Notes under the pieces: generated by a model | Databases searched by the model: none | What the model was told of the DNA's origin: nothing | The model's input: the letters and a program-made list of their open reading frames with translations, nothing else | Part shown: piece after piece, positions 643-64,000 of the stretch | Layout of the letters: every line of letters begins with the position of its first letter | How positions within the stretch are numbered: the first letter of the stretch is position 1 | Program-made: the position numbers and the translations under genes | Source: an uncultured Phycisphaerales bacterium | GTDB lineage: Bacteria; Planctomycetota; B15-G4; CAYZWU01 | DNA: 64,000 bases | Assembly: GCA_964482235.1 (NCBI GenBank) | Contig: CAYZWU010000028.1 | Location: 6,645-70,644 of the forward strand | Reading direction: 5' to 3'

Positions 643-6504
<5,862 letters not shown>

Positions 6505-6936
6505 AAATCAGTCTCTTCCCTTGCGCGCTTGTCCTCAAGGGAGTAGGCGACCATCCTGCCGACCGAGCAGCAATCTGCCTATCCCGAACAATTTCGTCGG
6601 GCTAATGATTTTTTTTTGTCAATCATCGGCCGGGCGGTCGTCGGAAAGCGCAAGGTGTCATCTGATGTCTCAACTTTCCGGCTACCGCATAATCGCGCAA
6701 TGATACCTTACCGGCGGACTGGAATGAAACGCTTTTTTCTTGAATGGCATATTTGATGGGAAATGCCGCCCGGCGCCCCCACTCCCGGGCAATCAGCCGC
6801 AATCTTCTGTTTAAAATAGAATTATAGCCAATAAGATACAGCGCTCACATCGCAGATCAGCGCGAAACCTGCCCGCAGACGGCAGCAAGCGGGTGGTTTG
6901 GGCTTCATATGGATTAAATTTATTTAATCGAGAGAA

Positions 6937-8094: not shown

Positions 8095-8096
8095 TC

Positions 8097-20385: not shown

Positions 20386-20848
20386 GGTTCTGTTGTCAAC
20401 CAATGCCGGTTCTCCAGACTTGTAACAGAACTCTTTGACGTCCCTGCAGACAGGTTGCTTTCCGGCAAAGAGGCCGCACCACTCGAATACGAATCAGATG
20501 TCAAGTGAAGATCAAGATCCCGAAAGAGAGATATTCGCTGTTTCTCTCTGATCAATGAGAAAAGGATACATATTTCCTGATACCTCGTCAACACAATCCA
20601 TGCCTGCCTGCGTGCGGACAGCCTTCCGGGACGGCTTTCCCTCTTCCCTCGAACACCGGGATCCCGAACCACGATTTCTGAAAAAAAGGGATTTTCCCTG
20701 TTCGGTCAGCGCCGAAAGGCCGGTTTCTCTAACTGTTCAGTTCGAATCCGACGAATCGCGATGCAGCCGCGCGGCACACGGAAAAGCGGAACGATTCAAC
20801 GAACAGGAAAACAGTTATGACGCACTGGATCTCAAAGGAGGAAAAGAG

Positions 20849-49172: not shown

Positions 49173-50627
49173 TCATGAATCGACAAAGTAATTGGGCGCC
49201 TCGCGCGTGATCTGGATGTCGTGCGGGTGGTTCTCCCTCAGGGTGGCGGGAGAGACCCTGATGAAGCGGCCCCTCGTGTAGAGCTGCTCCAGGGTCTCCG
49301 CCCCCGTGTACCCCATGCCCGAACGGACTCCGCCGACGAGCTGGTAGACGAAGGTGGAGAGGGCGCCCTTGTACGGGACGAGTCCTTCCACGCCTTCGGG
49401 CACGAGCTTCTCGGGAGTGGGACTGTCGGACTGGCGGTACCTGTCGCTCGATCCGTCCATCATGGCACCGAGCGAGCCCATGCCGCGGATCGTCTTGAAC
49501 GACCTCCCCTTGAAGATCACGCTTTCACCGGGGGATTCGTCCATCCCGGCAAAGAGGCTCCCCATCATCACGCTGTTGGCTCCGGCCACGATGGCTTTCA
49601 CCACGTCTCCCGAGGCGCGAATCCCGCCGTCGGCAATGACCGGAACCCCGGCCGGCTTCGCCACGGCGGCACAGGAGGCCACGGCCGTGACCTGCGGCAT
49701 TCCGATGCCGGTCACCACCCGGGTGGTGCAGATCGATCCGGGGCCGATGCCGACCTTGACGGCATCGACGCCGGCGGCGACGAGGTCCTCGGCCGCCTCC
49801 TTGGTGGCGATGTTGCCGGCCGCCACGTCGATCTTGAAGGAGCGCTTGATCTCCCGCACCGTCTCGATCACGTTCCGTGAATGGCCGTGCGCCGTGTCGA
49901 CGACGAGGACGTCGCAGCCTGCCTCGATCAGCCCGTCGCAGCGATCGAGATCGAAGACGCCCACGGCAGCTCCGACCCGCAGCCGGCCACGCTCATCGCG
50001 GCAGGCCGCGGGGAACTGCTTCAGTCCCTTGATGTCTCGCATGGTGATCAGCCCGAGGAGCTCGCCGGCGTCGTTCGTGAGGATCAGCTTCTCCACCTTG
50101 TGCTTGTGAAGGATATGCTCCGCGTCGGCCAGGCTCGTCTTGGCGGGAGCGGTGACCAGGTCCCTGGTCATGATCTCCTCCACCTTGAGGTCCTTTTCCC
50201 ACTGGAAGCGGAGGTCGCGGTTGGTGAGGATGCCGACCACCTTCCGGTTCTTCACGATGGGAACGCCGGAGATGGTGTGCGTGGTCATCACCTCCCGCGC
50301 CCGGCTGATCGGGGCGCTGGGCGGCAGGGTCACGGGATCGACGATCACGCCGTTGGCGCTCCGCTTGACGATATCGACCTCGCGAACCTGGTCATCGACC
50401 GACATGTTCTTGTGAATGATGCCGATCCCCCCCTCGCGGGCCAGGGCGATGGCCATGCGCGATTCGGTCACCGTGTCCATGGCAGCGCTGGAGAACGGGA
50501 TGTTCAGCTCGACGTTCCTGGAAAAGTAGGTTCTCGTATCCACCTCCGACGGCATGATGTCGGACCTGTTGGGCAGAACGAGAACGTCGTCGAAGGTAAT
50601 GGCTTCCGTGATGTTGTCAGTCAGCAT
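49173..50627 (-). CDS. guaB: IMP dehydrogenase with CBS pair
   Basis: [27 protein letters not shown] (catalytic Cys), ADGGI and GMGSLGAM motifs. Confidence 0.98.
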
Positions 50628-51403
50628 TGTTCTTCTCCTTCTCCAACCGGATCATCGGAAAAAAATTAAAGAAACGGATGGATTGGACGGAGTCATGGAA
50701 TGAAAAGGAAACCGCCATTGTTCCACACGGAGGGTGAAACCGGGGTAGATTGGCAAGAAAAACCCGGAAACTCATCTGGAAAAGCCGTTTCCGAAGGCTC
50801 AAGTTCACCATTGGAACGATATATATTCAAACCTTATGGAAATCCAGAGAAAAATCGATCCGGGGAAGGAAGGCGGAGTGGAGTGCGCCGTGGGCAACAA
50901 CATAAAGAGGGCCCCTTCGGTTAAAACCTCCAGGACCCCGAAAACAAGAAGGAGGAGAATCAATATCCTTATCGGAATTCGGGGCCAGGTACTTTATTTC
51001 AGCACTCTCTTTTTGTCGGAATGCCCGAAACGGCCATAGGGAGAATCCCCTACCCCCTTCTGTGGAGAATTCCACCTCATCGCACAAAAAAAAAATAAAC
51101 CGGCAAAGGAATCTCCCCTGAATGCGAGCGACCGGCAAAGAAGCCCCCATGAAATTGACTAACAGCTGAAACCGATTGACAAAAACAAGGTTATCTTACG
51201 TTTCCCATTGTTGCCATCTTGAACGACGGGGGAAGCGGTTAGGGATCATAGACTTGAGCGTCTCGATATGAATTAAAATGAAACGTTGATTATTGCTCTA
51301 GAATGTTTCAAAATGATTAAGTTTACTATGCAGATTCAGTGCAAAAGCACTATGTATATTTTCAGATCCCGTTGGCCAAGAATACTGTTTAAGGATAAGT
51401 CGC

Positions 51404-52813
51404 TTGAACCCAGAATCATTTGGTCAGATCGAAGGTCTGTTCGACGCCCCGCTGGAGGTTGCTCCGCTTCTGGACCAGTTGCCCCTGGGCATTATGATCC
51501 TCAGCCTGGATCAAAAGATCCTGTTTCTGAACAGCGCCTTCGAGGCTTTGACCGGATTTGATCGCGATGAAGTTCATCATGTTCCCTGTTGCCATGTGCT
51601 CAGGACGGATATATGCAACGATCGTTGTCCCATTTTGAACACAGGCGACAGCGTCAAGCCGGCTCCGCAGACGGGGACGATTCTCATCAGCTCGCGCGAG
51701 AAGATCGACGTGCGCTTGACGGCAAGTGCGCTGCGCGACCGGAATGGGCGCATCATCGGATACATGGAAACGGTCGAGGATCTCGGGACGCATCACCAGA
51801 TCATGGATCATCAGCGCGATCTGCAAGGATTCAGCCAGATTGTGGGGCGTTCTCCGCCCATGCAGAAGCTGTTCAGTCTTGTTCCCGTCGTTGCCCAGAC
51901 CGATTCCTCGCTGCTCATCACCGGAGAGACGGGCACGGGCAAAGATATCCTGGCCGAGGCGATCCACGAAACATCGGACCGCAGCGACGGGCCTTTCATC
52001 AAGGTGAACTGCGGCGCGCTTCCCGAGACGCTGCTCGAGTCCGAGCTGTTCGGTCACAAGAAGGGCGCTTTCACCGGGGCGGAGAGCGACAAGATGGGGC
52101 GTGTACGCCTGGCTCATAACGGCACGCTCTACCTTACGGAGATCGGCGATCTCTCCCTCCCGCTCCAGGTCAAGCTGCTGACCTTTCTCGATGACAAGAT
52201 CGTTTACCCCCTGGGAGATGCCGATGGATATCACGTCGATGTGCGGATCATTGCAGCCACGCACCGCGATCTGATGCAGATGACCAGGGATAACGCCTTC
52301 CGTCAGGATCTGCTGTTCCGGCTGAATGTGGTTCGTTTTCATCTGCCGCCCCTGAGGGAGAGGGATGGAGATGTTCGCCTGCTCCTGGACCATTTCCTGA
52401 AGATCTTCTCCGTAAGGTTCGGCAAATCTCTCAAGGGATTTACTCGGACGGCGCAGGAGCTGCTGCTGAACTATGCCTACCCCGGAAATGTACGCGAGCT
52501 CAGAAATATCGTGGAATACTCAACCAGCATATGTCCCGTGGAGATGATCGGGCTGGAGCATCTGCCCGCCTACCTGGGAGAGCCGCTGCTCGATGTGGGC
52601 GGCGAAACAGGCGACGTGTCCCACGTCGAGGAGCCGGTGAGCTGGTCCTCCAAGGAAGCGGCGCCGGGGATGAACTGGGCCGCCATCGAGCGTCAGCTCA
52701 TTGTCGACACCTTGGTCAAGGCCAAGGGGCACAGAAGCAGGGCCGCGGAGATGCTGGGCTGGGGGCGTTCCACGCTATGGCGGAAGATGAAGTTCCACGG
52801 ACTCGAATCGTGA
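51404..52813 (+). CDS. PAS-domain sigma54-dependent enhancer-binding protein (OrpR-like)
   Basis: PAS with CCHVLRTDICNDRC, Walker A GETGTGKD, ESELFGHKKGAFTGA, FRQDLLFRLNV, YPGNVREL, and a Fis-type HTH (GWGRSTLWRK). TTG start. Confidence 0.93.
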   Translation: MNPESFGQIEGLFDAPLEVAPLLDQLPLGIMILSLDQKILFLNSAFEALTGFDRDEVHHVPCCHVLRTDICNDRCPILNTGDSVKPAPQTGTILISSREKIDVRLTASALRDRNGRIIGYMETVEDLGTHHQIMDHQRDLQGFSQIVGRSPPMQKLFSLVPVVAQTDSSLLITGETGTGKDILAEAIHETSDRSDGPFIKVNCGALPETLLESELFGHKKGAFTGAESDKMGRVRLAHNGTLYLTEIGDLSLPLQVKLLTFLDDKIVYPLGDADGYHVDVRIIAATHRDLMQMTRDNAFRQDLLFRLNVVRFHLPPLRERDGDVRLLLDHFLKIFSVRFGKSLKGFTRTAQELLLNYAYPGNVRELRNIVEYSTSICPVEMIGLEHLPAYLGEPLLDVGGETGDVSHVEEPVSWSSKEAAPGMNWAAIERQLIVDTLVKAKGHRSRAAEMLGWGRSTLWRKMKFHGLES

Positions 52814-52838
52814 AATGGCGTTGATGAAGGGTACCGAA

Positions 52839-53186
52839 ATGACTCGAAAGATAATGATCGTCCTGCGTGAAAACGAGGTGGCCCCGCGCTTCGACCTGAC
52901 CGCCGAGGTCTACATCGCCGTGCTGGACGCTGATGGAGCGATCGAGCACGACAAGACCATGGTCCTGGCGCACTCGTCTGCGGACGATCTATGTCAGCTG
53001 ATCTTGAGCGAGGGCGTCGACATGCTGGTCTGCAACGGAATCGAGCAGGAGTTCTTCGAGTATCTCACATGGAAGAAGGTGCATGTACTTGACTCGGTCA
53101 TGGGGCCCTGGGAGCGTGCATTGGAAAAAGTCCGGAACAACGAATTGCAGTCGGGGTCGATCCTTTTCGACCGTCCGGAAAGGTAA
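52839..53186 (+). CDS. NifB/NifX (MTH1175-like) family small protein
   Basis: VAPRFD...VDMLVCNGI...V.GP.E.AL pattern of the dinitrogenase FeMo-cofactor-biosynthesis-like fold. Start ATG 52839. Confidence 0.75.
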   Translation: MTRKIMIVLRENEVAPRFDLTAEVYIAVLDADGAIEHDKTMVLAHSSADDLCQLILSEGVDMLVCNGIEQEFFEYLTWKKVHVLDSVMGPWERALEKVRNNELQSGSILFDRPER

Positions 53187-53190
53187 GACC

Positions 53191-54924
53191 ATGTTCAGGA
53201 GAATCAGAAAACGGCTCCGTTCACTGCTCGATGTTTCGCCGGTTTTTTCCGATCAGCCCATGTCTCCCCGTCGCTATGGTATGCTCCGTCGCACAATGAC
53301 CATCATCATGGTCGTGGCCACGCTGCTGCCGCTGACCATGATGGCCGCGATCAACCACTATCAATACCAGAAGGCGCTGAGCCGGGAAACGATCGAGCCC
53401 TTGAAGAACCTGGTCAACAAGACCCAGCATTCGTTCGAGCTTTTCTTGACGGAGCGGCTCTCTGCCGTCAGTTTCATTGCGGCAGCCTATACCTACCATG
53501 AGCTGGCCGATCAGAAAACGCTGACATTCATCTTTCATGCCATGAAGGAAAAGTTCGGCGGCTTCGTGGACCTGGGCATGATCGACGCCTCGGGATTGCA
53601 AGTGAGCTACGTCGGGCCTTACGATATCGAGGGGAAGCAGTACAAGGATCAGGAATGGTTCAAGGAGGTGCTGGTGAGGGGCGAGCATATCAGCGACGTC
53701 TTCATGGGGCACCGCAAGTTTCCTCACTTCGTGATCGCCGTACAGAACGAAAATGAAGAAGGGGAAAAGTGTATCCTTCGCGCAACCATCGATACGGAGC
53801 TGTTCAACCAGCTCATCGCCTCCATGGGACTCGATGCAGCGAGCGATGCCTTCGTGTTGAATCGCGACGGCGTTTTTCAGACTACATCCAAGTTCTACGG
53901 CAAGGTGCTTGAAAAGTTCCCGATGTCCATGCCGCCGCTGAGCTATTCGGCCAACGTGCTGGAGATGGAGGATTCCGAGGGCAGTGATATCCTGCTGGCC
54001 TACTGTGACTTCTCTTCACCTTCCTTCGTCCTGATGCTGGTGAAGCCCCAGAGCACTGTGCATGGATCATGGTATACGCTGAAAGGCGAGCTGCTCTTCA
54101 TCTTCATCGGCGGCATTGTCGTGATATTCCTTGTCGTGTTCAAGATCACCGATCTGCTGGTGAAGCGGATCGAGGAGTCGGATAGGAGGCGGGAGATCAC
54201 ATATCACCAGACCGAGCATACGAACAAGCTGGCCTCCATCGGCAGACTCGCCGCCGGCATTGCCCATGAAATCAACAATCCCCTGGCCATCATAAACGAG
54301 AAGTCAGGTCTCATGGAGGATCTGATCCAGATCAAGTTCGACCTTGAAAGGAAGGGACGGCTCCTCGAGCTCACCGGATCGATCCGGCATTCCGTGGAGC
54401 GTTGCAGCACCATCACCCACCGCTTGCTTGGATTCGCCCGCAGAATGGATGCCAAGCTCGAGACCATTAACCTACGAGAGGTTTTCATGGAGGTGTTCGG
54501 CTTTCTCGAGAAGGAAGCGGCACACCGCAATATCACCGTGCACCTGCAGCTCGATGAAGCGCTGCCCGATATCTATTCGGACCACGGCCAGCTGCAGCAG
54601 GTTTTTCTCAACATCCTCAACAACGCCTTTTCCGCGGTTGACGATGGCGGTATTGTCACGGTCACCAGCTTCGAACATGATGCGGATCTTGTCGGCATTT
54701 CCATTGCCGATGACGGGGTGGGCATGTCGGAGGAGACCATGAAGCACGTTTTCGATCCGTTCTTCTCGACGCGCGGCACGCACGGCACCGGGCTCGGCCT
54801 CTCCATCACCTATGGCATTGTGAACAAGCTGGGCGGCAAGATCGACGTGCAAAGCAAGGAAGATGAAGGTACCACTTTTACTGTGTACTTACCCAAGAAG
54901 AGCTATCTAGGCAGGGACGTGTAA
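53191..54924 (+). CDS. Membrane sensor histidine kinase 1 (Cache-like periplasmic domain)
   Basis: Two TMs, H-box [11 protein letters not shown]-box QVFLNILNNA, DDGVG, FDPFF and GTGLGLSI. Start ATG 53191. Confidence 0.95.
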   Translation: MFRRIRKRLRSLLDVSPVFSDQPMSPRRYGMLRRTMTIIMVVATLLPLTMMAAINHYQYQKALSRETIEPLKNLVNKTQHSFELFLTERLSAVSFIAAAYTYHELADQKTLTFIFHAMKEKFGGFVDLGMIDASGLQVSYVGPYDIEGKQYKDQEWFKEVLVRGEHISDVFMGHRKFPHFVIAVQNENEEGEKCILRATIDTELFNQLIASMGLDAASDAFVLNRDGVFQTTSKFYGKVLEKFPMSMPPLSYSANVLEMEDSEGSDILLAYCDFSSPSFVLMLVKPQSTVHGSWYTLKGELLFIFIGGIVVIFLVVFKITDLLVKRIEESDRRREITYHQTEHTNKLASIGRLAAGIAHEINNPLAIINEKSGLMEDLIQIKFDLERKGRLLELTGSIRHSVERCSTITHRLLGFARRMDAKLETINLREVFMEVFGFLEKEAAHRNITVHLQLDEALPDIYSDHGQLQQVFLNILNNAFSAVDDGGIVTVTSFEHDADLVGISIADDGVGMSEETMKHVFDPFFSTRGTHGTGLGLSITYGIVNKLGGKIDVQSKEDEGTTFTVYLPKKSYLGRDV

Positions 54925-54925
54925 T

Positions 54926-55309
54926 ATGGAAAACCTCAAGGTGCTCCTAGTAGATGATGAGGAAGAGTTCATACTCACGCTGGCTGAGAGGCTCGAGCTG
55001 AGAGAGATCAAGGCCCTGACCGCCGTCAACGGAGAGCAGGCGCTTCAGGTCGTTGAGAGGGAGAAACCGCCCGTTGTGGTTCTCGACGTCAAGATGCCGG
55101 GTATTGGCGGAATGGAAGTGCTTCAAAATATAAAGGGCAGACATCCTGAGATTCAGATTATTCTGCTCACCGGTCACGGCTCCACCAAGGATGGGATCAA
55201 AGGGATGCGCCTGGGCGCATTCGACTACATCATGAAGCCGGTGAAGATCGAAGAGCTGATAGACAAGATGCGAGAAGCGTATGAAGCGTTCAGGGCATCG
55301 AAGAAATGA
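54926..55309 (+). CDS. Single-domain response regulator
   Basis: LLVDDE, VLDVKMPG, LTGHG and KP motifs; no output domain. Confidence 0.95.
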   Translation: MENLKVLLVDDEEEFILTLAERLELREIKALTAVNGEQALQVVEREKPPVVVLDVKMPGIGGMEVLQNIKGRHPEIQIILLTGHGSTKDGIKGMRLGAFDYIMKPVKIEELIDKMREAYEAFRASKK

Positions 55310-55555
55310 TCGGATTATGGAGCCCGGCGTTGTCAGGCACGATCCACGGCTCAGGCGTTTCGGGATCACTCCTGGCAGGCGCATGGGATGCACCTGCTTG
55401 AAAGGGCCTGAAAGCAGCCCTGATAAGATGTTTTCATCTCATGTCTTGATATTCACACCCTAAGACAGCTCGCTTTCATTGTTTCTATATGTTTCATATT
55501 GCCCTCATTGCTGTTGCGCATTGTTTCAAATCAAGACCCGTTACTAATCGCAATA

Positions 55556-55575
55556 AGTTGTAATATATTGCAACT
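55556..55575. promoter_or_regulatory. 20-bp imperfect palindrome, candidate operator
   Basis: AGTTGTAATATATTGCAACT lies 16 bp upstream of the sigma54 -24 box. Confidence 0.45.
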
Positions 55576-55591
55576 AAACGCTTAGTAAACT

Positions 55592-55607
55592 TGGCCCGCC
55601 CTTTGCT
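55592..55607 (+). promoter_or_regulatory. sigma54 (-24/-12) promoter
   Basis: TGGCCCGCCCTTTGCT has GG and GC exactly 12 nt apart, matching TGGCACG-N4-TTGC(A/T). It lies about 60 bp before ATG 55666, near an EBP gene. Confidence 0.75.
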
Positions 55608-55665
55608 TGATCCTTCTCTATATATGAATCCAAAACACTTCCTTCACAGTGAGAGGAACTCAATA

Positions 55666-56523
55666 ATGACAAAAGACAAACTGAAGATCCTACTTGTAGA
55701 TGATGAAACCGAGTTCGTCGACAGCCTATCCGAGCGGCTGGGTTTGCGCGGCATGAAAACCGACGTTGCCTATGACGGCGAGCAGGCGCTGAAGGCCGTG
55801 GAGAAGAGCGCGCCCGATGCCATGGTTCTCGACCTACGCATGCCCGGCATGGACGGCATAGAGGTGCTCGAAAAAGTCAAAAAAGATTACCCCAATATCC
55901 GGGTTATTGTCCTGACCGGTCACGGCACGGATGAAGACGAGGCAAAGGCATTGAAGCTCGGGGCATCGGTTTTCATGAAGAAGCCGGTGGATATCGACCA
56001 GCTCGTGAAGATTCTTCGCAAGGAGAGGATGAAGGTCCTCCTCGTTGATGATGAGAAGGAGTTCGTGGATAGCCTGTCTGAACGGCTCGAACTGCGGAAC
56101 GTGGAGGCCGGCATTGCCTACGATGGGGAGCAGGCGATCAAGGCGGTTGACGAAGAGGAGCCCGATGTTCTCGTTCTCGACCTTCGCATGCCCGGCATCG
56201 ACGGCATCGAAGTCCTTCGCAGGGTCAAGAAGAGCCACCCCGAAATGCCGGTCGTGATCCTCACCGGCCATGGGACGGAAGACGACGAAAAAAAAGCCCG
56301 CCGCATGGGCGCCTCGGCATACCTGAAGAAACCGGTTGACGTCAATCAGCTCACCGGTGTTCTGCAGAAAGTGGTGGGTCGATTCAAGAAATCCAAGAAG
56401 GTTGTGGACACCATGTTGATGGCCGCGGCCCTTGCGCAGGCGGGCGAGACGGAGTATGCCCGCGAAACCCTTGAAGAGCTGGAAGAAGACAAGAATAAAG
56501 ACAGGAAGAAAGATAAGAAATAG
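55666..56523 (+). CDS. Tandem double-receiver response regulator with a short C-terminal helical tail
   Basis: Two near-identical REC domains (LLVDDE.EFVDSLSERL, VLDLRMPG, LTGHG, KKPV). GAGAGGA RBS then ATG 55666. Confidence 0.93.
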   Translation: MTKDKLKILLVDDETEFVDSLSERLGLRGMKTDVAYDGEQALKAVEKSAPDAMVLDLRMPGMDGIEVLEKVKKDYPNIRVIVLTGHGTDEDEAKALKLGASVFMKKPVDIDQLVKILRKERMKVLLVDDEKEFVDSLSERLELRNVEAGIAYDGEQAIKAVDEEEPDVLVLDLRMPGIDGIEVLRRVKKSHPEMPVVILTGHGTEDDEKKARRMGASAYLKKPVDVNQLTGVLQKVVGRFKKSKKVVDTMLMAAALAQAGETEYARETLEELEEDKNKDRKKDKK

Positions 56524-56554
56524 CGTCTCCGACGCCTTCCGAGGAGCCGTAGAT

Positions 56555-58249
56555 ATCAATACTCCCACGAGCCGTCAATACAGCACCCTGACCCGGAGCC
56601 TTTTCCTGATCAGCTTTTTTCTGCCTTTTGTTCCCCTCGTTATTCTGGCGTGCGCTCTTCTGTACGAGTGTCACGCTACGTTGGAAGAGGAAGCTTACAA
56701 CGACCACCGGAGAAAGGTCTGGGAATGTGCGAATCATGTCGAGAGGCGCCTGGAAGATCAAATCCGGACCATGCAGTGGATATCCGGGACGTTCGGCTTC
56801 GAGGCACTGTGTGATGAGGCACGGCTTAAGCAAGCTCTGGTGCTGCTCCAATCCCGGTACGGGTTCGAATCCGTCGAGCTTGGCGTTTTCGACGAGCGGA
56901 ACCGTAGGATCGCCTATGCAGGATCGGCTGCGTCCGGCGGCGTATCGAATATCAACGCGCAAAACCGTGGGGCAATGGTTGGAAAGCTGTTCTTCAATGA
57001 GCAGGATGTCGCTGCTTATACACTGTCTGTTCAAGAAGGTTCCCACGATAGCTCCTGGATGCTGCGCGCAGTCATCGACGCCCGCGCCCTGGATGAGATC
57101 GTCCCTTCCGCGCATGCCGGCGAGAGGGGCGCAGTCTTTCTCCTCCAAAAGGGCCGGACCTTTCCCGTGGCGTTGTCCGTCGCGGATCGCTTGACAGAAG
57201 ATCGCCTGTCTGCGGACCGCCTGCCAGACGAAGTCGTGGCGAACCTGTCAAGGCATGCGGAGACGGGCAATGACGAACCTCCCGTAATCGAATGCGTGGA
57301 CCGCTCAGGGCTGGAAAGGCTCTATGCCGCCGGCTCGATCCAGGGAACGGATTGGTGGATTATTCTGCAGCAGGATGCATCAGCAGCGTATTCGCAATTC
57401 TCAAGAATAAGGACAGTTGCGGTTGTCCTGCTGCTGGCAATCGGGTTCCTGCTCGCGGCCAACGCTTTCAGCCTTTCGAAGAAGCTGGTACGTAAAATCG
57501 AAGAGGCGGACAAGAAGAAACAGAGGAGGATCGAGCAGATGTACCAGACCTCCAAGCTGGCATCGATCGGGGAGCTGGCCGCGGGCATTGCCCATGAGAT
57601 CAACAACCCGGTGGCCATCATGGTCGAGGAGGCCGGTTGGATCAACGATCTGCTCGAGGAGGAAGAGTTCGCCAGAGGCAAGAACCTGAACGAATTCGGA
57701 AGGGCCTTGGATCAGATCAAATCCCAGGGAGAACGATGCAAGGCCATTACGCAGAAGCTACTGAGCTTCGCCCGGGAATCCGGATTTCGTATGGAAAAGG
57801 TGAGGCTGATCGAGCTGATCGGGGACGTTCTCGACATCATGGCCAAGAGGTCTTTCTTCGAGAAGGTTCGCATCGATTTGAACGTGCAGAAGGACCTTCC
57901 CGAGCTGAGCCTGCCCCGCATCGAGCTGCAGCAGGTTCTCGTCAACCTGATCAACAACGCCGTCGATGCCATGAAAGGGAAGGAAGGCACCCTCTTCCTG
58001 TCTGCCGGGCTCGAGCGGGATCATCTGTGGATCGAGGTGGCCGACGACGGCTGCGGCATTCCGGAGCAGCACCTCCAGCGTATCTTCGATCCGTTTTTCA
58101 CCACCAAGCCGGTGGGGCAAGGTACGGGCCTTGGGCTCTCCATCTGTTACGGCATCATCAAGAAGATGGGAGGCAGCATCCAGGTGGAAAACCTCGTTGA
58201 TCGGGGAGCTTCCTTTCGGATCCGAATTCCGCGGGAGGCCCTGGTTTGA
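56555..58249 (+). CDS. Membrane sensor histidine kinase 2 (start codon uncertain)
   Basis: Two TMs, H-box [36 protein letters not shown] and GTGLGLSI. The best RBS (GAGGAG 56541-56546) precedes an in-frame ATC at 56555. Confidence 0.9.
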
Positions 58250-58353
58250 GCGTGACTCCCGGCATGAGAAGGAGCCGGGAGCCGCTAGAAAGGTTGTCGA
58301 GACGCTGTCCGGAGAACGGGCGGCAGAGGTAAAAGGAAAGGCGAGCGCCCGCT

Positions 58354-58773
58354 ATGAACGTTTTGCTCGTTGATGATGAAGCCCCTTTCATCGACACGGT
58401 CACCAAGCGCCTGGTGAAACGGGGGATCCGCGTCTTCACCGCCTTGAGCGGAGACGAGGCACTCGGCCTTCTCGCAGGCGATTCGGGCATCGAGATCGTT
58501 GTTCTCGACATCAGGATGCCGGGCTTGAGCGGCCACGATACGCTGGCGGAGATCAAGCGTCGGTTCCCATCCGTGGAGGTGATCATCTTGACGGGCCACT
58601 CCACGGTGGAGTCAGCCATCAAGACGAAACGGCTGGGCGCCTTCGACTACCTCGGCAAACCATGTGACATAGAGGAGCTCATCACGAAGATCCAGGAAGC
58701 CTTCGGCCGGGTCCGGCATCGAGAAGAGGCTGACCGGGACGACGCGTCCCGGAAAGGAGGTCAAGATGAATGA
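58354..58773 (+). CDS. Single-domain response regulator
   Basis: LLVDDE, VLDIRMPG, LTGHS and KP motifs. Confidence 0.93.
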   Translation: MNVLLVDDEAPFIDTVTKRLVKRGIRVFTALSGDEALGLLAGDSGIEIVVLDIRMPGLSGHDTLAEIKRRFPSVEVIILTGHSTVESAIKTKRLGAFDYLGKPCDIEELITKIQEAFGRVRHREEADRDDASRKGGQDE

Positions 58774-59200
58774 CATACGCGTACTGCTCGTCGATGACGA
58801 GACGCAATACATGGAAACGCTGATGAAGCGGCTGAAGAAGCGCCGTATCGATATTCGCGGCGTGGACCGCGGGGAGAAGGCGCTGGAAACGCTCTCGCGC
58901 CACGAGGTGGACGTCGTGGTCCTTGATGTGAAGATGCCGGGCATGGATGGCATCGAGGTGCTGAAACGGATCAAGTCGCAATATCCCTTGATCGAAGTCA
59001 TCATGCTCACCGGGCATGCCAGCATGGACGTGGCGATGCAGGGGATGCAGCTCGGAGCCTTCGACTACCTCGTGAAGCCAACGGACGCCGACGAGCTGCT
59101 GTACAAGATCCAGGACGCAATCCAGCACAAAACCATCGAAGAAGCAAAGCAACAAGAATCGCAAGAAATAACTGAGCCGGAATCCGGGGATGAACCTTAA
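58766..59200 (+). CDS. Single-domain response regulator
   Basis: LLVDDE, VLDVKMPG, LTGHAS and KP motifs; overlaps the previous gene by 8 bp. Confidence 0.93.
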   Translation: MNDIRVLLVDDETQYMETLMKRLKKRRIDIRGVDRGEKALETLSRHEVDVVVLDVKMPGMDGIEVLKRIKSQYPLIEVIMLTGHASMDVAMQGMQLGAFDYLVKPTDADELLYKIQDAIQHKTIEEAKQQESQEITEPESGDEP

Positions 59201-59258
59201 CGGGCCCATCTCCTGAAACGGCCAACAGACGCTGTTACTTGAAAGGAGCTACAACGAG

Positions 59259-60545
59259 ATGAACTTTTTCAGACAGTGGGGAGAATTCATGATGATGGGT
59301 GCGAGGGCCCATGCGAAGTGGGAGATCAATGTCTCCAACACGATTGTCAGAAGCCGGAAGCGCATGATGATCCTCTGGTTGCTGATCTTGCCCATCGTGC
59401 TTGGCAGCTTCGCCTTTGCCGCCCCCCTCAGCGAGGCGCTGCCCGAATTCCTTGGCGGCAAAAAGGCGTACAGCCCGGCGTTCTTCACGGGCGGGATCTT
59501 CATCGCATCGATCCTTATCGGACTCTGCGCGGGGCTGATCACCGGCTGCATCGGCGCGGGCGGCGGTTTCGTCATTGCCCCGGCCCTGATGAGCGCGGGA
59601 ATCAAGGGGATCCTGGCCGTGGGCACCGACCTTTTCCATATCTTCGCCAAGGCGATCATGGGAAGCGTCATCCACAGGAAGCTGGGCAATGTGTCCGTAA
59701 TCCTGGCCGTGATCTTTCTGATCGGAGCGATTGTGGGCGCCACGGGCGGCGGCGTGCTCAACCGGGTGCTCTACGAGATCAATCCCGTGCTGAGCGATGC
59801 TTTCATCACGTCGATCTACGTGCTCATGCTGGGTCTTCTGGGAACGTACGCGCTTTTCGATTATCTGAAATCGAGGAAACAGCCCGATGCCGGCGGCGCG
59901 CACGGCGGCAAGGACGAAGGTGCCGACCTGGGCAACCTGCCCAGGAAGCTCCAGTCCATCAACATCCCCCCCATGGTGACCTTCGACAAGGGGATCACGC
60001 CGGGCGGCCGCAAGATCTCCTGGATCTTCCTCGTGCTCAGCGGAGGCCTCGTGGGTTTCATGGCAGCCATCATGGGCGTGGGCGGCGGCTTTCTGACCTT
60101 CCCCATATTCGTGTACATCATGGGCGTTTCGTCGCTCACAACGGTGGGAACGGATATCTTTCAGATCGTGTTCACCGCCGGATATGCCGCGATCAGCCAG
60201 TACGCGATCTTCGGTTTCATCTTCTACACGCTGGCCATGGGCATGTTGCTGGGCTCGCTGCTGGGTATCCAGATCGGTGCCATGGTGACCAAATGCGTCA
60301 AAGGCACAACGATTCGTGGTTTCTACGCCATGGCCGTGCTGGCCGGTTTTGTCAACCGGATCTTCGCCCTTCCGGGCAAGCTGACCGAAATGGAGGTCAT
60401 GTCCCTGTCCAAGGGCACCGTGAACGTGCTGGACGCCATCGGGGTGTGGGCGTTCTTCCTGGTCATAGGAATCTTTGCCGTATGGGTGATCGGAACTTTT
60501 TTCAAGAACCTCTCGCTGCTCAAGGGAGAGGAGGTGAACTCATGA
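59259..60545 (+). CDS. TauE/SafE (TSUP) family permease
   Basis: GLITGCIGAGGGF, AVGTDLFH, AAIMGVGGGFL and TVGTD motifs; multiple TMs with an internal two-fold repeat. Confidence 0.9.
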   Translation: MNFFRQWGEFMMMGARAHAKWEINVSNTIVRSRKRMMILWLLILPIVLGSFAFAAPLSEALPEFLGGKKAYSPAFFTGGIFIASILIGLCAGLITGCIGAGGGFVIAPALMSAGIKGILAVGTDLFHIFAKAIMGSVIHRKLGNVSVILAVIFLIGAIVGATGGGVLNRVLYEINPVLSDAFITSIYVLMLGLLGTYALFDYLKSRKQPDAGGAHGGKDEGADLGNLPRKLQSINIPPMVTFDKGITPGGRKISWIFLVLSGGLVGFMAAIMGVGGGFLTFPIFVYIMGVSSLTTVGTDIFQIVFTAGYAAISQYAIFGFIFYTLAMGMLLGSLLGIQIGAMVTKCVKGTTIRGFYAMAVLAGFVNRIFALPGKLTEMEVMSLSKGTVNVLDAIGVWAFFLVIGIFAVWVIGTFFKNLSLLKGEEVNS

Positions 60546-61228
60546 TTGCGAACAAGAAACAGTTCATGACCGGCACCCTCCTGCTGGCCGCCTTCACCGT
60601 GGTGCTCGTATTCATCTTTCTGCCGATCGTCGACGGCCAGAATGCGCTGGACTACATGGACTCGCTGTTCAATTCCATCTCCAAGGATTCGGCCTACTAC
60701 ATCGACACCCTCAAGGAGGAATCGAAGGAGCTGGCCGGCACCAGCATCACTGTCGAGCTTGTATTCGAGGACCCTTCCACAGCCGCCGAGGTCGAGCCGT
60801 TATTCACGAAAAACGGGGCCATAGCCGGCGTGAAAGACGGGAAGCTGGAATTCACCGGCGATCTGGGTGTCATCATGGAAGGATGTTTGAATGATGCGGA
60901 CGAGATGTTCGCCAATCACGGCGAGGCGCTGATCGAAAAGTACGGATGCGAAGAAAAGCAAGCTATGTACGGCTGGTGGGTGGCGCTCAAGGCTCTGGAC
61001 AAAGCGCTCAAGCGTCAGGAGAAGTTCGCTGAATCCAAGTTTGTCACAACAGTGATCAAGAAGGGCGTGGAGTGTTCCTACAACTTCTACGGGATCGAGC
61101 CGCAGAAGATAACCGAAAAGATGGTTCTCGTCCTGGGTTCCCTTGTCTTCTATGTGATCTATACCATGTGGTACGGTTTTGCCATCATGTTCATGTTCGA
61201 AGGCTGGGGATTGAAGCTGGAGCACTGA
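60542..61228 (+). CDS. Hypothetical membrane protein (N- and C-terminal TMs, periplasmic middle), coupled to the TSUP gene
   Basis: ATG 60542 overlaps the TSUP stop (ATGA). This is the real 3' part of track ORF 59276..61228 (MIANKKQF...GWGLKLEH). Confidence 0.85.
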   Translation: MIANKKQFMTGTLLLAAFTVVLVFIFLPIVDGQNALDYMDSLFNSISKDSAYYIDTLKEESKELAGTSITVELVFEDPSTAAEVEPLFTKNGAIAGVKDGKLEFTGDLGVIMEGCLNDADEMFANHGEALIEKYGCEEKQAMYGWWVALKALDKALKRQEKFAESKFVTTVIKKGVECSYNFYGIEPQKITEKMVLVLGSLVFYVIYTMWYGFAIMFMFEGWGLKLEH

Positions 61229-61356
61229 GCTTGACCGGACAAGGCGGAGCCGAGTTCAAAAGTTCCGCGGGACAGGGGTCCAATCCCCCGGATCGGAGGA
61301 CTTGGCTTCACCATCGTCACGGGCCTGATTCCGCCGAGAGATGCGACTCGATTCGT

Positions 61357-61384
61357 GGGGTTGTTCCCTTCGGGGAACAACCCC
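61357..61384. repeat. Perfect 12-bp stem with a C(UUCG)G tetraloop
   Basis: GGGGTTGTTCCC-TTCG-GGGAACAACCCC, intergenic, with no U-tract. Confidence 0.7.
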
Positions 61385-61502
61385 GGCCAGGTTGCGTTTT
61401 CCCGCTGGGATATTGCCGAAATCTGTTATTTCTATGGGAGAGACGGCATCATCATCGCAGCTGCGGTGAGGGACGTCCACCACTTTGAATCGAGGTGATC
61501 AA

Positions 61503-64000
61503 TTGAGCAGCTGGCGCAAATGGCTGAGCAGGCTGCTTTCGAGAAACCGGGAGCAGGACAAACTCGATGCGGCCCGGCTTCGCCTCGACTTCAAGGCGCG
61601 TTACCAGAGTTTCAAGCTTCTCCTCAGCGCCAACCACAGGTCCCTCGAGCTCATGGCCGAGATCGAGCGCGTGTTATCGGGAATCCGGCCTTTCGGCATG
61701 ACCTTCGTCCGGTCGCGCTGTACGCGGATTTCCACCCTGGTTTTTCAGATCGTCAAGCATCTCGATGGGCTGGCCCCGGGCCGGTATGCGGAGCTATTCG
61801 AGAAATTCGAATCGATCCACGATGAAATCAAATCCCACCTGCAGATCCGGAAAGATGTTGTTGAAGGGCCCCTGACCGTCCCTCTCGAGGAGATCGACAG
61901 GGATATGACCGATGGTGTGGGCCAAAAGATGGCGAGCCTGGCCGAAGTCAAGAACCGCTTCGACGTGAAAGTGCCCGGCGGTTTCGTGATAACGGCGACC
62001 GCCTACCATCGCTTCATGGAGCACGGCGGGCTGCAAATGGAGATCAATCGGCGTCTCCAGGCGGCGGATGTTTCGAAAAGGGATGAGCTGTTCGATCTGA
62101 GCGCGGGGATTCAGCGTCTGATTATCGCGTCGGAGATTCCCATTGAACTTGAGCGCGAGATCGAGGCGCAGGTGGCCTGTCTCGATGCGGCCGGGGAATC
62201 GGGAGGCGGACCACTCTCCGTGGCCATGCGCAGCAGCGCACTGGGCGAGGACCGCGCGGGCGTTTCCTTTGCCGGTCAGTACAGGACGCTGCTCAACGTG
62301 GGCAGGGAGAACGTCCTCCATGCCTACAAGGAGATCGTGGCAGGAAAATACGGCCTCGCCGCCATGACGTACCGGCTGAACCGGGGCATTGTGGATGAAG
62401 AGGCGGCCATGTGCGTCGGCTGTCTTCAAATGATCGATGTCCTCTCGGGCGGCGTGATGTATTCCCGGAATCCGATCGACATCCGTAACGAGTCGATTCT
62501 GATCAATTCGGTCTGGGGGCTCCCCAAGCCGGTCGTGGACGGTCGGATCGAGGCGGACCTTTTCGTGCTCGATCGCAACGATCCCCCCGACATCACGGTC
62601 AGGGAAATCGCCATCAAGGAATACAAGTTCGTATCTTTCCTTGAGGAGGGTGTCGGCCGGATGGTCGTTACGGGCGAGGAGCGGAACCTTCCTTCGCTCA
62701 CAGACGAGCAGGCAAGGGAACTTGCGCGCATGGGCATGAAGCTCGAGGCGTACTACGGCACCCCGCAAGATATTGAATGGGCTATCGCCCGTGGCGGCGA
62801 GATCGTGCTTCTGCAGTGCCGGCCGCTGCACGCGCAGGTGACGGATCCGGAAATCGAAGGGGATTCGGGGAATGGTGGAGATCTAGAAAACGGCCTGGTT
62901 TCGGGAAGCGACCGAGATTCACGGACCACCAGGAAATGGCAGGTAGGCGAGCCGCCCGGACCCGTCCGGCTTCGAGGTGGTGTCACGGCAAGTCCCGGGG
63001 CCGCGGCCGGGCCCGTTTTCAAAGTCGAGAAGAGCGCGGACAGCCTTCGGTTTCCACAGGGCGCCGTGCTGGTGACGACCCAGTCGCTGCCGGCGTGGGC
63101 CTCGCTCGTCGGAAACGCGGTTGCCGTGGTCAGCGAGGTCGGCGGGGTTACAGGCCATCTGGCCAGTGTGGCACGCGAGTTCGGCATCCCGGCGCTCTTC
63201 GGCGCCCGGGGAGCGATGAAACGGCTCGTCAACGGCGAGATCGTCACCGTCGATGCCGACGGAATGCATGTTTTCGACGGCCGCATCGAGGCGCTCGTCG
63301 ACGAGGAACGACAGCCCCGGAATCTCATGGAAGGGAGTGCCGTGTTCGAAACGTTGAAGTCCGTGGCGCAATGCATAACTCCGCTGAACCTTCTCGATCC
63401 CGATGCGCCCGGATTCAGGCCCTTCGGTTGCGGAACGCTTCACGATATCACGCGCTTCTGCCATGAAAAGGCAGTGGCAGAGATGTTCCGTTTCGGCAAG
63501 GACCACCGTTTTCCGGAGCGCTCGAGCAAGCAGCTGTACTGCGATGCGCCCATGCAGTGGTGGGTCCTCAACCTCGATGACGGATTCACCGAAGAAGTCG
63601 AGGGCAGGTATGTCGGGCTGGACAATATCGTGTCCATCCCCATGCTCGCCATCTGGGAAGGTGTTGCCGCCATCCCCTGGGAGGGCCCACCGCCCATTGA
63701 CAGGAAGGGGCTCATGTCGGTCATGTTCGAAGCCACGAGAAATACGGCACTCACCCCCGGTCTTCGTACGCGGTACGCCAACCGGAACTACTTCATGATC
63801 TCCAGGAACTATTGCAGCTTGAGTTCGCGGTTGGGATTCCACTTTTCAACGATCGAAACACTGGTGAGCGACCGCCCGCGGGAAAACTATATCAGCTTCC
63901 AGTTCAAAGGCGGTGCCGCGGACTTCGATCGCCGCCTGAAAAGGGTACGTTTTGTCGGGGACATTCTCGAGAACTACGGTTTCCGCGTTGAAGTCAAGGA
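61503..64000 (+). CDS. PEP synthase/pyruvate-water-dikinase-like protein (ATP-grasp + phospho-His domain + uncharacterised C-terminal domain), 3'-truncated; absent from the ORF track
   Basis: GAGGTG RBS then TTG 61503. Manual translation gives GQKMASLAE..VPGGFVIT, MRSSALGED..SFAGQY, PQDIEW, GGVTGHLASVAREFGIP (His at 63156-63158), then ITPLNLLDP..LHDITRFCHEKAV..FKGGAAD. Confidence 0.88.
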   Translation, partial: MSSWRKWLSRLLSRNREQDKLDAARLRLDFKARYQSFKLLLSANHRSLELMAEIERVLSGIRPFGMTFVRSRCTRISTLVFQIVKHLDGLAPGRYAELFEKFESIHDEIKSHLQIRKDVVEGPLTVPLEEIDRDMTDGVGQKMASLAEVKNRFDVKVPGGFVITATAYHRFMEHGGLQMEINRRLQAADVSKRDELFDLSAGIQRLIIASEIPIELEREIEAQVACLDAAGESGGGPLSVAMRSSALGEDRAGVSFAGQYRTLLNVGRENVLHAYKEIVAGKYGLAAMTYRLNRGIVDEEAAMCVGCLQMIDVLSGGVMYSRNPIDIRNESILINSVWGLPKPVVDGRIEADLFVLDRNDPPDITVREIAIKEYKFVSFLEEGVGRMVVTGEERNLPSLTDEQARELARMGMKLEAYYGTPQDIEWAIARGGEIVLLQCRPLHAQVTDPEIEGDSGNGGDLENGLVSGSDRDSRTTRKWQVGEPPGPVRLRGGVTASPGAAAGPVFKVEKSADSLRFPQGAVLVTTQSLPAWASLVGNAVAVVSEVGGVTGHLASVAREFGIPALFGARGAMKRLVNGEIVTVDADGMHVFDGRIEALVDEERQPRNLMEGSAVFETLKSVAQCITPLNLLDPDAPGFRPFGCGTLHDITRFCHEKAVAEMFRFGKDHRFPERSSKQLYCDAPMQWWVLNLDDGFTEEVEGRYVGLDNIVSIPMLAIWEGVAAIPWEGPPPIDRKGLMSVMFEATRNTALTPGLRTRYANRNYFMISRNYCSLSSRLGFHFSTIETLVSDRPRENYISFQFKGGAADFDRRLKRVRFVGDILENYGFRVEVK

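Follow-up and report, generated by a model that had tools for sequence, protein, structure and literature searches.

What joins sensor kinases, stand-alone receivers, a TSUP permease and an enzyme resembling PEP synthase in a single gene cluster? The question is raised by a locus at the end of a 64,000-nucleotide stretch of DNA (here called the window) from a Planctomycetota bacterium. The original prediction described a redox-gated system for transport and phosphorylation, and proposed genetic work in a Desulfovibrio host.

Organization of the cluster

Eleven genes lie on one strand (Table 1), and every gene named in the original prediction is present in the order given there. They form two transcription units, EBP-NifX-HK1-REC1 and, preceded by a sigma-54 promoter motif, REC-REC/HK2/REC3/REC4/TSUP/partner/dikinase. 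In the first of these, a single nucleotide separates the HK1 stop from the REC1 start. The GC content of the cluster is below that of the flanking DNA and its relatives are mostly from Desulfobacterota, so the cluster was probably acquired horizontally. The choice of a Desulfovibrio host is not borne out: the source is a planctomycete, and subfamily relatives are mostly from Desulfobacterales (Desulfobacterota) and Phycisphaerales.

Table 1. Features of the cluster in window coordinates.
Feature	Position	Strand	Description
EBP gene	51404..52813	+	469 aa; Pfam matches PAS_4, Sigma54_activat, HTH_8
NifX/NifB/MTH1175-family gene (Nitro_FeMo-Co)	52815..53186	+	123 aa; PF02579
HK1	about 53191..54924	+	HisKA, HATPase_c; alternative starts 53083, 53296
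REC1, stand-alone receiver	54926..55309	+	canonical DD, D, T, K residues
Overlapping inverted repeats	55541..55588	.	centred on TCGCAATA...TATTGCAAC
Sigma-54 type -24/-12 motif TGGCCCGCCCTTTGC	55592..55606	+	60 nt 5' of REC-REC ATG
Tandem REC-REC	55666..56523	+	285 aa; acceptor sites intact in both halves
HK2	56456 (or 56771)..58249	+	two-TM sensor histidine kinase
REC3, stand-alone receiver	58354..58773	+	orthologues 53-59% identical
REC4, stand-alone receiver	58766..59200	+	8-nt overlap with REC3
TSUP (TauE/SafE) permease	59259..60545	+	428 aa; PF01925, 127.5 bits
Partner gene	60542..61228	+	228 aa; two TM helices
Dikinase-like gene, PEP-synthase-like 'X, water dikinase'	61503..64000 (window end)	+	PPDK_N, PEP-utilizers

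The internal sigma-54 promoter that had been claimed upstream of REC-REC is plausible and lies where it was expected. The motif TGGCCCGCCCTTTGC, located within an AT-rich 356-bp intergenic gap, differs from TGGCAC-N5-TTGC at one position, and the inverted repeats TCGCAATA...TATTGCAAC immediately upstream of its -24 element may bind an activator or IHF. In the related loci, a motif of this type precedes the module on the coding strand in 28/80 and on the other strand in 4/80 (29 matches on the + strand, 5 on the - strand). The motif predicts that REC-REC is the first gene of a sigma-54 operon.

Conservation across genomes

The claim that these genes form a conserved unit stood up to a comparison of neighborhoods in 80 related loci. 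The conserved core consists of HK2, two to three stand-alone receivers, TSUP, the partner and the dikinase. Its order was found again in dozens of genomes, which makes a chance arrangement very unlikely; the cluster as such recurs in hundreds of anaerobe genomes. TSUP adjoins the 228-aa partner in all 66 informative loci, and the dikinase-like gene lies directly 3' of the partner in 50 of 69, with a paralogue nearby in several others. A stand-alone receiver, most often of the REC4 type, is immediately 5' of TSUP in 43/63 loci. Full-length kinases of the HK2 type were found no more than 2.2 kb 5' of TSUP in 20 of 45 loci, and pairs of an HK1-type kinase and a receiver 3' of the dikinase in 9 of 35. 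Sodium/sulfate-type transporter genes of the DASS family occur in 11 related loci, where CBS and Usp genes are also neighbors, and the neighborhoods contain no conserved downstream metabolic genes.

The presence of a receiver upstream and that of a dikinase downstream are associated (33/2 versus 7/7; Fisher p = 0.001). None of the five loci whose TSUP is preceded by a receiver-fused sigma-54 activator has a dikinase directly downstream, which suggests that receiver and dikinase provide an alternative output to transcriptional control. TSUP operons controlled by sigma-54 and an EBP are documented in Desulfovibrio, including DVU0132-0133 (Kazakov et al. 2015, PMC4641369), and these are mirrored by related loci with the order HK, REC-EBP, sigma-54 motif, TSUP, partner.

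Regulators and sensors

The EBP has no receiver domain. Its matches are to PAS_4 (33.8 bits), Sigma54_activat (217.9 bits) and HTH_8 (51 bits), its AAA+ domain carries the GAFTGA loop, and four cysteines (C62, C63, C71 and C75) lie in the N-terminal PAS domain. Its likeness to LOV-type PAS domains is weak, and the LOV motif is missing. The neighboring NifX/MTH1175-type protein matches PF02579 at 29.8 bits (cut-off 26.3) and, weakly, the PDB entry 1rdu. Among the 80 related loci we found no full-length match to the EBP and no homologue of the NifX-like protein; both genes are specific to the source lineage. The proposal that the system is redox-gated, with a Cys-rich PAS activator that senses anoxia, is therefore conjecture.

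The two kinases had been called Cache-type, and the sequence comparisons bear this out. HK1, a sensor histidine kinase with two TM helices, has a ~246-aa periplasmic domain resembling dCache_1, although its score (36.8 bits) does not reach the cut-off of 45. HK2 is a paralogue of HK1 over its full length, sensor domain included (27% identity). For HK2 itself the label is less direct, as a Pfam search gave no Cache match, but its orthologue at one related locus (L005) scores 76 bits against dCache_1. ATG 56456 is probably the start of HK2; the public start at 56771 is too late and loses TM1. All receivers keep their acceptor residues, and none carries an output domain.

The permease and its partner

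TSUP, with eight hydrophobic segments, is the best-conserved protein of the cluster (orthologues 69-90% identical). Like other TSUP (TauE/SafE/CysZ-like) permeases it is a member of PF01925, and it differs from them in being long for a TSUP protein, in its large loops and in its obligatory pairing with the partner. The start of the partner gene overlaps the TSUP stop codon (ATGA), and the two are translationally coupled, as had been claimed. In the partner, N- and C-terminal TM helices flank a central, acidic and probably periplasmic domain of ~164 aa; searches for a Pfam or NCBIfam family or a structural match found none. In a paralogous module at another related locus (L038), the same place after TSUP is filled by a DUF4881 protein, which belongs to a different family.

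A dikinase-like enzyme without the PEP synthase barrel

The dikinase-like gene runs beyond the window, which breaks off at residue 832 of the protein; on the source contig, the complete 900-aa product reaches window-equivalent position 64205. Its N-terminal ~125 aa are family-specific and precede an ATP-grasp domain and a swivel domain (PPDK_N, 290 bits; PEP-utilizers, 64.4 bits). His552 of the swivel domain and the motifs RSSALGED...SFAGQ and DIEWA are invariant in the family. The ATP-grasp nucleotide domain is common to PEP synthase, pyruvate phosphate dikinase and other 'X, water dikinases', and the swivelling phospho-histidine domain, catalytic His and nucleotide-site motifs are likewise shared. 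In contrast to PEP synthase, the enzyme has no PEP/pyruvate-binding TIM barrel and PEP-utilizers_C is absent. In its place is a conserved C-terminal domain of ~300 aa that contains many invariant polar, Cys and His residues, matched no Pfam family or PDB structure and gave a poor AlphaFold model (pLDDT 51). This domain occurs in 1357 representative clusters, nearly always as the terminal part of a protein 840-900 aa long. The novel C-terminal domain and the ~125-aa N-terminus distinguish the enzyme from rifampicin phosphotransferase, PigC/RedH and glucan water dikinase, the first of which also differs in domain order.

Homologues are named 'pyruvate, water dikinase' in the source databases, and the best NCBIfam and PDB matches are PEP synthases. 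The NCBIfam score of 301 bits falls well short of the 598-bit cut-off, however, and the match spans only positions 8-474 of the 798 in PEP synthase. The label 'PEP synthase' is a misnomer. With the phosphotransferase system (Enzyme I/HPr/EII) the analogy is mechanistic only: a phospho-histidine swivel domain of the same fold family is genetically coupled to a transporter, but PEP-binding, HPr and EII domains are absent and ATP must donate the phosphoryl group. The cluster does not belong to that system, and no fusion of the dikinase to a receiver or transporter was found.

Nitrate and thiosulfate links in apparently related clusters

By published annotation and layout, the closest studied system appears to be the Desulfovibrio 'nitrate cluster' DVU0251-DVU0245 / Dde_0597-0605 (Korte et al. 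2014, PMC4001038), at best a paralogue of the present cluster. Its TauE/TSUP permease gene is followed by one for a small conserved hypothetical protein; the cluster also encodes a sensor histidine kinase, a stand-alone receiver and a protein that combines PPDK_N with a PEP-utilizers mobile domain. Nitrate resistance results from an insertion in the gene for TauE, the hypothetical protein next to it, the receiver or the dikinase (PMC4001038), and since these mutants share one phenotype the genes act together. Polarity is excluded as the cause of the likeness between permease and dikinase mutants because the dikinase gene lies 3' of the permease gene in that cluster. The authors also mention a mild thiosulfate growth defect as an unpublished observation, and suspected thiosulfate transport (PMC4001038). 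The nitrate cluster has a PtxB-like periplasmic protein that is absent here, PAS/HAMP rather than dCache sensor domains in its kinase, one receiver where there are five receiver domains here, and a different gene order with both receiver and dikinase 3' of the permease. Its dual-specificity phosphatase is also absent, although our contig stops ~240 bp past the dikinase, so a downstream copy is possible.

A second link comes from Dissulfuribacter thermophilus, in which the consecutive genes DITHS69_1988-1990 are annotated 'PEP synthase', 'transmembrane protein co-occurring with sulfite exporter TauE/SafE' and TauE/SafE; proteomics showed higher levels of each of the three products during thiosulfate disproportionation (PMC13490349). 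Annotation and adjacency are what connect this triad with the present family; its surroundings include Usp and DASS-type genes, which also occur near several of the related loci. Its authors read the genes as a sulfur-compound exporter and a gluconeogenic enzyme, not as one unit (PMC13490349). The original statement that no characterized whole exists thus needs qualification: a cluster of the same layout has knock-out phenotypes and a similarly annotated triad is thiosulfate-regulated in proteomics.

A proposed dikinase-dependent anion transporter and its alternatives

The explanation we favor, with a probability of about 0.45 for the whole, is a horizontally acquired, signal-controlled anion transporter cluster whose solute is probably a sulfur oxyanion and whose function depends on the dikinase. 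The PAS activator would switch on the sigma-54 operon, and both dCache kinases would respond to a ligand in the periplasm by phosphorylating the stand-alone receivers. These have no DNA-binding output domain and so would exert their effect post-translationally, with the dikinase or the TSUP-partner complex as target. In the dikinase, ATP would load His552, from which the phosphoryl group would pass to an acceptor bound by the C-terminal domain; this transfer would be needed for transporter function as a phospho-switch or an energizing step. TSUP membership, the DASS genes and the thiosulfate links in Desulfovibrio and Dissulfuribacter point to an inorganic sulfur oxyanion, most likely thiosulfate, sulfite or sulfate.

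The original prediction had the dikinase trap the solute. This is one option, and rather an unlikely one: in such group translocation or metabolic trapping, TSUP and the partner would import a small molecule that the dikinase phosphorylates (ATP + X + H2O -> AMP + X-P + Pi). Rifampicin phosphotransferase, phenylphosphate synthase and glucan water dikinase phosphorylate their own substrates in this way and, to our knowledge, all characterized barrel-less relatives of PEP synthase target a hydroxyl of a small molecule or polymer. The invariant residues of the C-terminal domain would suit an active or binding site, and the subfamily-specific motifs FPERSSKQL and WWVLNLDDGF differ in a paralogous dikinase paired with another TSUP and partner, which is consistent with substrate specificity. 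Sulfur oxyanions, the likeliest TSUP solutes, have no obvious stable phospho-product, however, and conserved metabolic genes are missing downstream. Trapping also fails to account for the co-variation of dikinase and stand-alone receiver, or for the loci in which a transcriptional activator takes the place of the dikinase. The Desulfovibrio genetics (PMC4001038) better fit a dikinase required by the transporter, although an obligatory, PTS-like coupling of transport to phosphorylation, in which loss of the dikinase also blocks entry, would fit them too.

It is less probable still that the dikinase is an ATP-driven phospho-donor to the stand-alone receivers. Transfer from His~P to Asp is chemically identical to that in two-component systems, and single-domain receivers co-occur with the dikinase; in the L038 paralogous module the receiver gene (5397-5828) ends where the dikinase gene (5828-8431) begins, and in Desulfovibrio the two have consecutive tags (DVU0247, DVU0246) and mutants of the same phenotype (PMC4001038). 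Yet the cluster already has two complete histidine kinases, an added phosphate input to receivers without output domains leaves the output unexplained, and a conserved 300-aa domain with so many invariant residues exceeds the needs of a docking site. That there is no functional unit, and an ordinary gluconeogenic PEP synthase merely sits beside a transporter, as database names, top matches and the Dissulfuribacter paper (PMC13490349) would have it, is scarcely credible given the partial, sub-threshold match, the missing barrel, the recurrent terminal domain and the conserved position of the gene 3' of the partner.

On the explanation we favor, the Planctomycetota copy would be one member of a gene cluster widespread in Desulfobacterota. 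Should the dikinase instead serve the receivers as a phospho-donor, it would give the phosphorelay a second input, one that reports the energy state of the cell.

Organization of the cluster

All eleven genes named in the original prediction are present in the last 12.6 kb of the window, in one direction and in the order in which they had been listed, and thus the observation itself was confirmed, while its interpretation was supported in part. Gene junctions are tight. The EBP and NifX-like genes, like HK1 and REC1, are separated by a single nucleotide, REC3 and REC4 overlap by 8 nt, and the TSUP stop codon overlaps the partner start in an ATGA; the 3′ end of the TSUP gene contains a GGAGG ribosome-binding site. 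On the source contig the dikinase is 900 residues long, and the contig ends about 240 bp beyond it.

Features of the cluster, with three further genes of the window
Feature	Position	Strand	Remarks
UvrA-like ORF, 1952 aa	643-6504	-	two full UvrA domain sets (UvrA_inter, UvrA_DNA-bind, ABC_tran); appears duplicated or fused
Ser/Thr protein kinase, 1018 aa	16836-19895	-	PD40 (WD40-like beta-propeller) repeats
NHL-repeat protein	20555-22153
EBP (PAS/sigma-54/HTH activator)	51404-52813	+	GAFTGA loop, Walker A, PAS Cys C62, C63, C71, C75
NifX-like: Nitro_FeMo-Co (NifX/MTH1175-type) protein	52815-53186	+
HK1	about 53191-54924	+
REC1	54926-55309	+
AT-rich gap, 356 bp	between REC1 and REC-REC
Candidate sigma-54 motif	55592-55606		TGGCCCGCCCTTTGC
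Tandem REC-REC	55666-56523	+
HK2	56456-58249	+	likely start; see text
REC3	58354-58773	+
REC4	58766-59200	+
TSUP/TauE permease	59259-60545	+
Partner, 228 aa, two-TM	60542-61228	+
Partner-dikinase gap, 274 bp	61229-61502		no Rfam match, no terminator-like site
Dikinase (PPDK_N + PEP-utilizers)	61503-window end	+

In the translations, the DD, D, T and K acceptor residues are kept in all five receiver domains and the H-box in both kinases. EBP has the domains of an NtrC-family activator, with a Sigma54_activat match of 217.9 bits, the GAFTGA motif, a Walker A sequence (GETGTGKD) and HTH_8 at 51 bits. HK1 and HK2 had been described as Cache-type kinases, and here the evidence is divided. The dCache_1 match in HK1 is sub-threshold (36.8 bits; cut-off 45) and HK2 itself has no dCache_1 match in Pfam, but an alignment of the two kinases extends from end to end, sensor domain and first TM helix included, at 27% identity, and the HK2 orthologue of L005, one of 80 related loci described below, scores 76.3 bits. 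Both carry two TM helices flanking an acidic domain of about 250 residues. The public HK2 call (492 aa, start 56771) omits TM1; because ATG 56456 is favored both by hydropathy and by comparison with HK1 in the alignment, this is likely the true start, and HK2 would then overlap the end of REC-REC by 68 nt.

The proposal that the system is redox-gated found no support beyond the PAS cysteines. A LOV reading of the EBP PAS domain was rejected, as the alignment is weak and the NCRFLQ motif is not conserved, and neither EBP nor the NifX-like gene was found in any of the 80 related loci. These two genes are a lineage-specific add-on.

A dikinase-like enzyme that is not a PEP synthase

The dikinase has the ATP-grasp domain expected of a PEP synthase (PPDK_N, 290 bits, residues 139-445) and a phospho-histidine swivel domain (PEP-utilizers, 64.4 bits) in which G551 and H552 are invariant among 25 homologues. 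The PEP/pyruvate TIM barrel is missing: PEP-utilizers_C gave no Pfam match even at E = 10 in 19 homologues. The protein aligns only to positions 8-474 of the 798 in the NCBIfam PEP synthase model, a span comprising ATP-grasp and swivel, and scores 301 against a cut-off of 598 (NF005057) and 285 against 740 (TIGR01418). With the pyruvate domain absent and scores this far under the cut-offs, an ordinary PEP synthase is excluded with good confidence. Its likeness to rifampicin phosphotransferase is likewise limited to the ATP-grasp and swivel domains, and an enzyme of that type or of the PigC type was rejected, since the His domain, C-terminal in those enzymes, is central here (517-586 of 900) and the score is 213 bits against 999 (NF041857). 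With the phosphotransferase system the swivel domain alone is held in common (TIGR01417, 19 bits against a cut-off of 342), and the cluster contains no HPr or EII genes.

Since neither His552 nor the nucleotide-site motifs show any variation, the histidine is expected to be loaded at the expense of ATP. What the phosphoryl group would then serve can be read in several ways, two of which had been offered in the original prediction. Phosphorylation of the imported solute by the dikinase is possible but unlikely, and use of the enzyme as a phospho-donor to the receivers is more doubtful still.

The C-terminal 300 or so residues are among the best-conserved parts of the protein (mean column identity 73%, compared with 67% over the whole alignment) and carry the invariant motifs CxTxHDITRFxHE, FPERSSKQL, WWxLNLDDGF and NYF..S..C.L.SR.G.H.S. 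A profile search of PDB sequences and a Pfam search at E = 10 returned no credible relative of this domain. It occurs in 1357 representative clusters, nearly always as the last part of proteins 840-900 residues long, and the unusually long homologues that were checked for fusions contain no extra domains. The AlphaFold model of the domain is poor (pLDDT 51), which makes its Foldseek matches meaningless.

The TSUP permease and its partner

The permease matches TSUP (PF01925) at 127.5 bits against a cut-off of 32.6 over residues 85-363, and has eight hydrophobic segments with a basic central loop of 60 residues between segments 4 and 5. To our knowledge, few transporter families are larger than TSUP, for which almost no substrates are known. 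The partner belongs to no family in Pfam or NCBIfam. Because its N-terminus has two lysines and its 164-residue central domain is acidic (18 K+R against 30 D+E), the protein is probably oriented N-in with the central domain in the periplasm. In its AlphaFold model (pLDDT 77) two long helices flank an alpha/beta domain, and a Foldseek comparison with the PDB found nothing better than E = 0.4.

Conservation of the module and alternative architectures

Partner homologues number more than 1150, every one annotated 'hypothetical', and relatives are encoded at no fewer than 582 loci in a scan of species-representative genomes; a plasmid collection yielded no homologue. Co-occurrence in other genomes had been set as the test that could refute the system, and the core does recur among the best 80 of these at least 582 loci, from which the neighborhood counts are taken. 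TSUP lies immediately 5′ of the partner at all 66 informative loci, the dikinase immediately 3′ of the partner at 50 of 69, and a stand-alone receiver immediately 5′ of TSUP at 43 of 63. The kinases are found less often: a full-length HK2-type kinase lies within 2.2 kb 5′ of TSUP at 20 of 45 loci, and an HK1-type kinase, followed by a receiver, within 3 kb 3′ of the dikinase at 9 of 35. The upstream receiver and the downstream dikinase are associated (Fisher p = 0.001). The length of the partner-dikinase gap varies widely across loci, from about 10 to 500 bp.

In a second architecture, a kinase and a sigma-54 activator fused to a receiver stand in place of the receiver, and a sigma-54 motif, TSUP and partner come next. 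None of five such loci has the dikinase directly downstream, and a paralogous dikinase is often found nearby on the opposite strand.

A different arrangement is seen in two related loci, L038 (47-8431) and L081 (38-8490), where a paralogous module directly precedes the TSUP-partner-dikinase module of that genome. Its order is dCache HK, REC, Usp, a second TSUP of 351 residues, DUF4881, a protein of 267-281 residues, REC and a second dikinase of 867 residues, whose gene starts where the receiver gene ends. The two dikinases align end to end at 36% identity, and the paralogue lacks FPERSSKQL and WWVLNLDDGF, a difference that fits subfamily-specific partners or substrates.

Recurrent neighbors include a DASS (Na+/sulfate-symporter family) transporter, at 11 loci, CBS-domain proteins, Usp and REC-HD-GYP proteins. 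The DASS gene often follows the dikinase directly or lies some 6 kb upstream, frequently with a CBS-domain gene beside it; a DASS/CitMHS gene is found about 3.8-4.1 kb past the partner start in L020, L056, L065 and L072, and at 260-1732 in L005. A REC-HD-GYP (HD_5) gene is convergent to the dikinase in L012, L014, L018, L024 and L083, on the - strand about 3.4-4.6 kb past the partner start, and such neighbors hint at a link to cyclic-di-GMP signaling.

Predicted sigma-54 control

The candidate promoter departs from TGGCAC-N5-TTGC at a single position and keeps the GG and GC dinucleotides at the right spacing. It sits 60 nt 5′ of the REC-REC ATG and 2.8 kb downstream of EBP in the same cluster, and inverted repeats lie just 5′ of it. 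Across the window, sequences within two mismatches of this consensus occur no more often than expected by chance, and a single -24/-12 motif therefore proves little alone. We examined 7 kb of sequence upstream of each partner gene in the 80 related loci, allowing at most one mismatch with the core intact, and counted 29 motifs on the coding strand as against 5 on the opposite strand, clustered before HK2 or before REC4/TSUP. Given this strand bias and clustering, predicted sigma-54 control is a conserved trait of the module. The layout of genes around the predicted promoter suggests two transcription units, the first comprising EBP, NifX-like, HK1 and REC1, and the second the seven that run from REC-REC through the dikinase. 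Simple scans for sigma-70 promoters and terminators gave background levels only, and a search of 50000-64000 against Rfam found no RNA family.

Origin of the cluster

The cluster is directly preceded by guaBA. The best named relatives of GuaB are all from Planctomycetota (63-69% identity; other matches reach 77%). Over positions 1-50000 GC is about 0.63 and GC3 about 0.87, and just past guaBA (50000-64000) they drop to 0.56 and about 0.74; by gene, the cluster has GC 0.56 and GC3 0.67-0.82, compared with 0.63 and 0.85-0.90 in the flanking housekeeping genes. The closest two clusters come from MAGs that bear the label Phycisphaerales, with identities of 88-90% for TSUP, 72-73% for the partner and 60-61% for the dikinase; the labels of the remaining loci are mostly Desulfobacterales, Desulfobacteraceae or Deltaproteobacteria. 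Among cultured bacteria the cluster is present in Desulfosudis oleivorans (locus L075), and relatives also turned up in Desulfatibacillum, Desulfonema and Desulfobacter. On the basis of the compositional drop and the mostly Desulfobacterota relatives, the cluster, which looks like acquired DNA at a contig break, may be read as an old horizontal acquisition from Desulfobacterota. ARAGORN found no tRNA marking an insertion site.

Relation to known systems

A search of the literature on DVU/Dde-type locus tags returned a single match, the study of Korte et al. (2014; PMC4001038) on the Desulfovibrio 'nitrate cluster' DVU0251-DVU0245. That cluster resembles ours in its TauE permease, stand-alone receiver, PPDK_N plus mobile-domain protein and histidine kinase, a likeness at the level of domain families only (PMC4001038 Table 3). 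There, loss of function gives resistance to nitrate, and mutants in the receiver or the dikinase behave like those in the permease, even though the dikinase gene is downstream of the permease gene. A leaky thiosulfate transporter was suggested by the authors, who also noted, as an unpublished observation, that growth on thiosulfate is mildly impaired. The position of DVU0250, after the permease, is taken in the paralogous module of L038 by DUF4881, which has no similarity to our partner (hhalign probability 0.25%). The PtxB-like periplasmic protein and dual-specificity phosphatase of the Desulfovibrio cluster are in none of the eleven cluster genes, and the contig ends shortly after the dikinase; neither was seen downstream of the dikinase in L005, and the third gene of that paralogous module, in L038 and L081, has no PtxB-like domain. 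Sigma-54/EBP control of a TSUP operon in Desulfovibrio has been reported (Kazakov et al. 2015; PMC4641369).

In the proteomics of Dissulfuribacter thermophilus (PMC13490349, 2026), a 'PEP synthase', a 'transmembrane protein co-occurring with sulfite exporter TauE/SafE' and TauE/SafE are consecutive (DITHS69_1988-1990) and are up under thiosulfate disproportionation by log2 +3.4, +1.8 and +1.6; the first was read by the authors as gluconeogenic. The up-regulated 'PEP synthase' of their Table 2 is DITHS69_1988, beside the TauE pair, and the one read as gluconeogenesis in their text is DITHS69_1161, a mismatch of locus tags that probably arose because the dikinase family is annotated as PEP synthase. 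Our links to both organisms rest on domain family, gene order and published annotation. The system is of a kind already known but mechanistically unsolved; it is widely distributed, and its enzyme is systematically mis-annotated.

A proposed model for receiver-switched transport

The stand-alone receivers have no output domain, receiver and dikinase co-vary, and the corresponding Desulfovibrio mutants phenocopy the loss of the permease; for these reasons we infer a route from receiver through dikinase to transporter. Phosphorylated receiver would act on the dikinase, which, through phosphorylated His552 and the C-terminal domain, would be needed for transporter function. In loci under direct control of a sigma-54 activator, the dikinase is missing directly downstream. 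The solute is most likely a sulfur oxyanion, given the TSUP family, the DASS neighbors, the thiosulfate proteomics and the Desulfovibrio genetics. Taken to its furthest point, the model makes TSUP-partner and dikinase an ATP-driven, PTS-like machine for inorganic sulfur oxyanions such as thiosulfate, in which a receiver-switched phospho-histidine enzyme directly gates or energizes a secondary-type permease. We regard this as speculative and put its probability at roughly 0.2. If true, it would be a phosphorylation-coupled anion transport machine of a new kind.

Two of the modules, the partner and the C-terminal domain of the dikinase, are without family or fold assignment, and the routine annotation of the latter enzyme as PEP synthase has already led to a reading of gluconeogenesis in a proteomics paper. 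How sulfur oxyanions are moved in sulfate reducers and sulfur disproportionators is an open question (PMC5840216). A cluster of like layout governs nitrate sensitivity in Desulfovibrio, a trait relevant to the control of oil-field souring. The occurrence of the present cluster in Planctomycetota suggests that a module for handling sulfur anions has moved between phyla.
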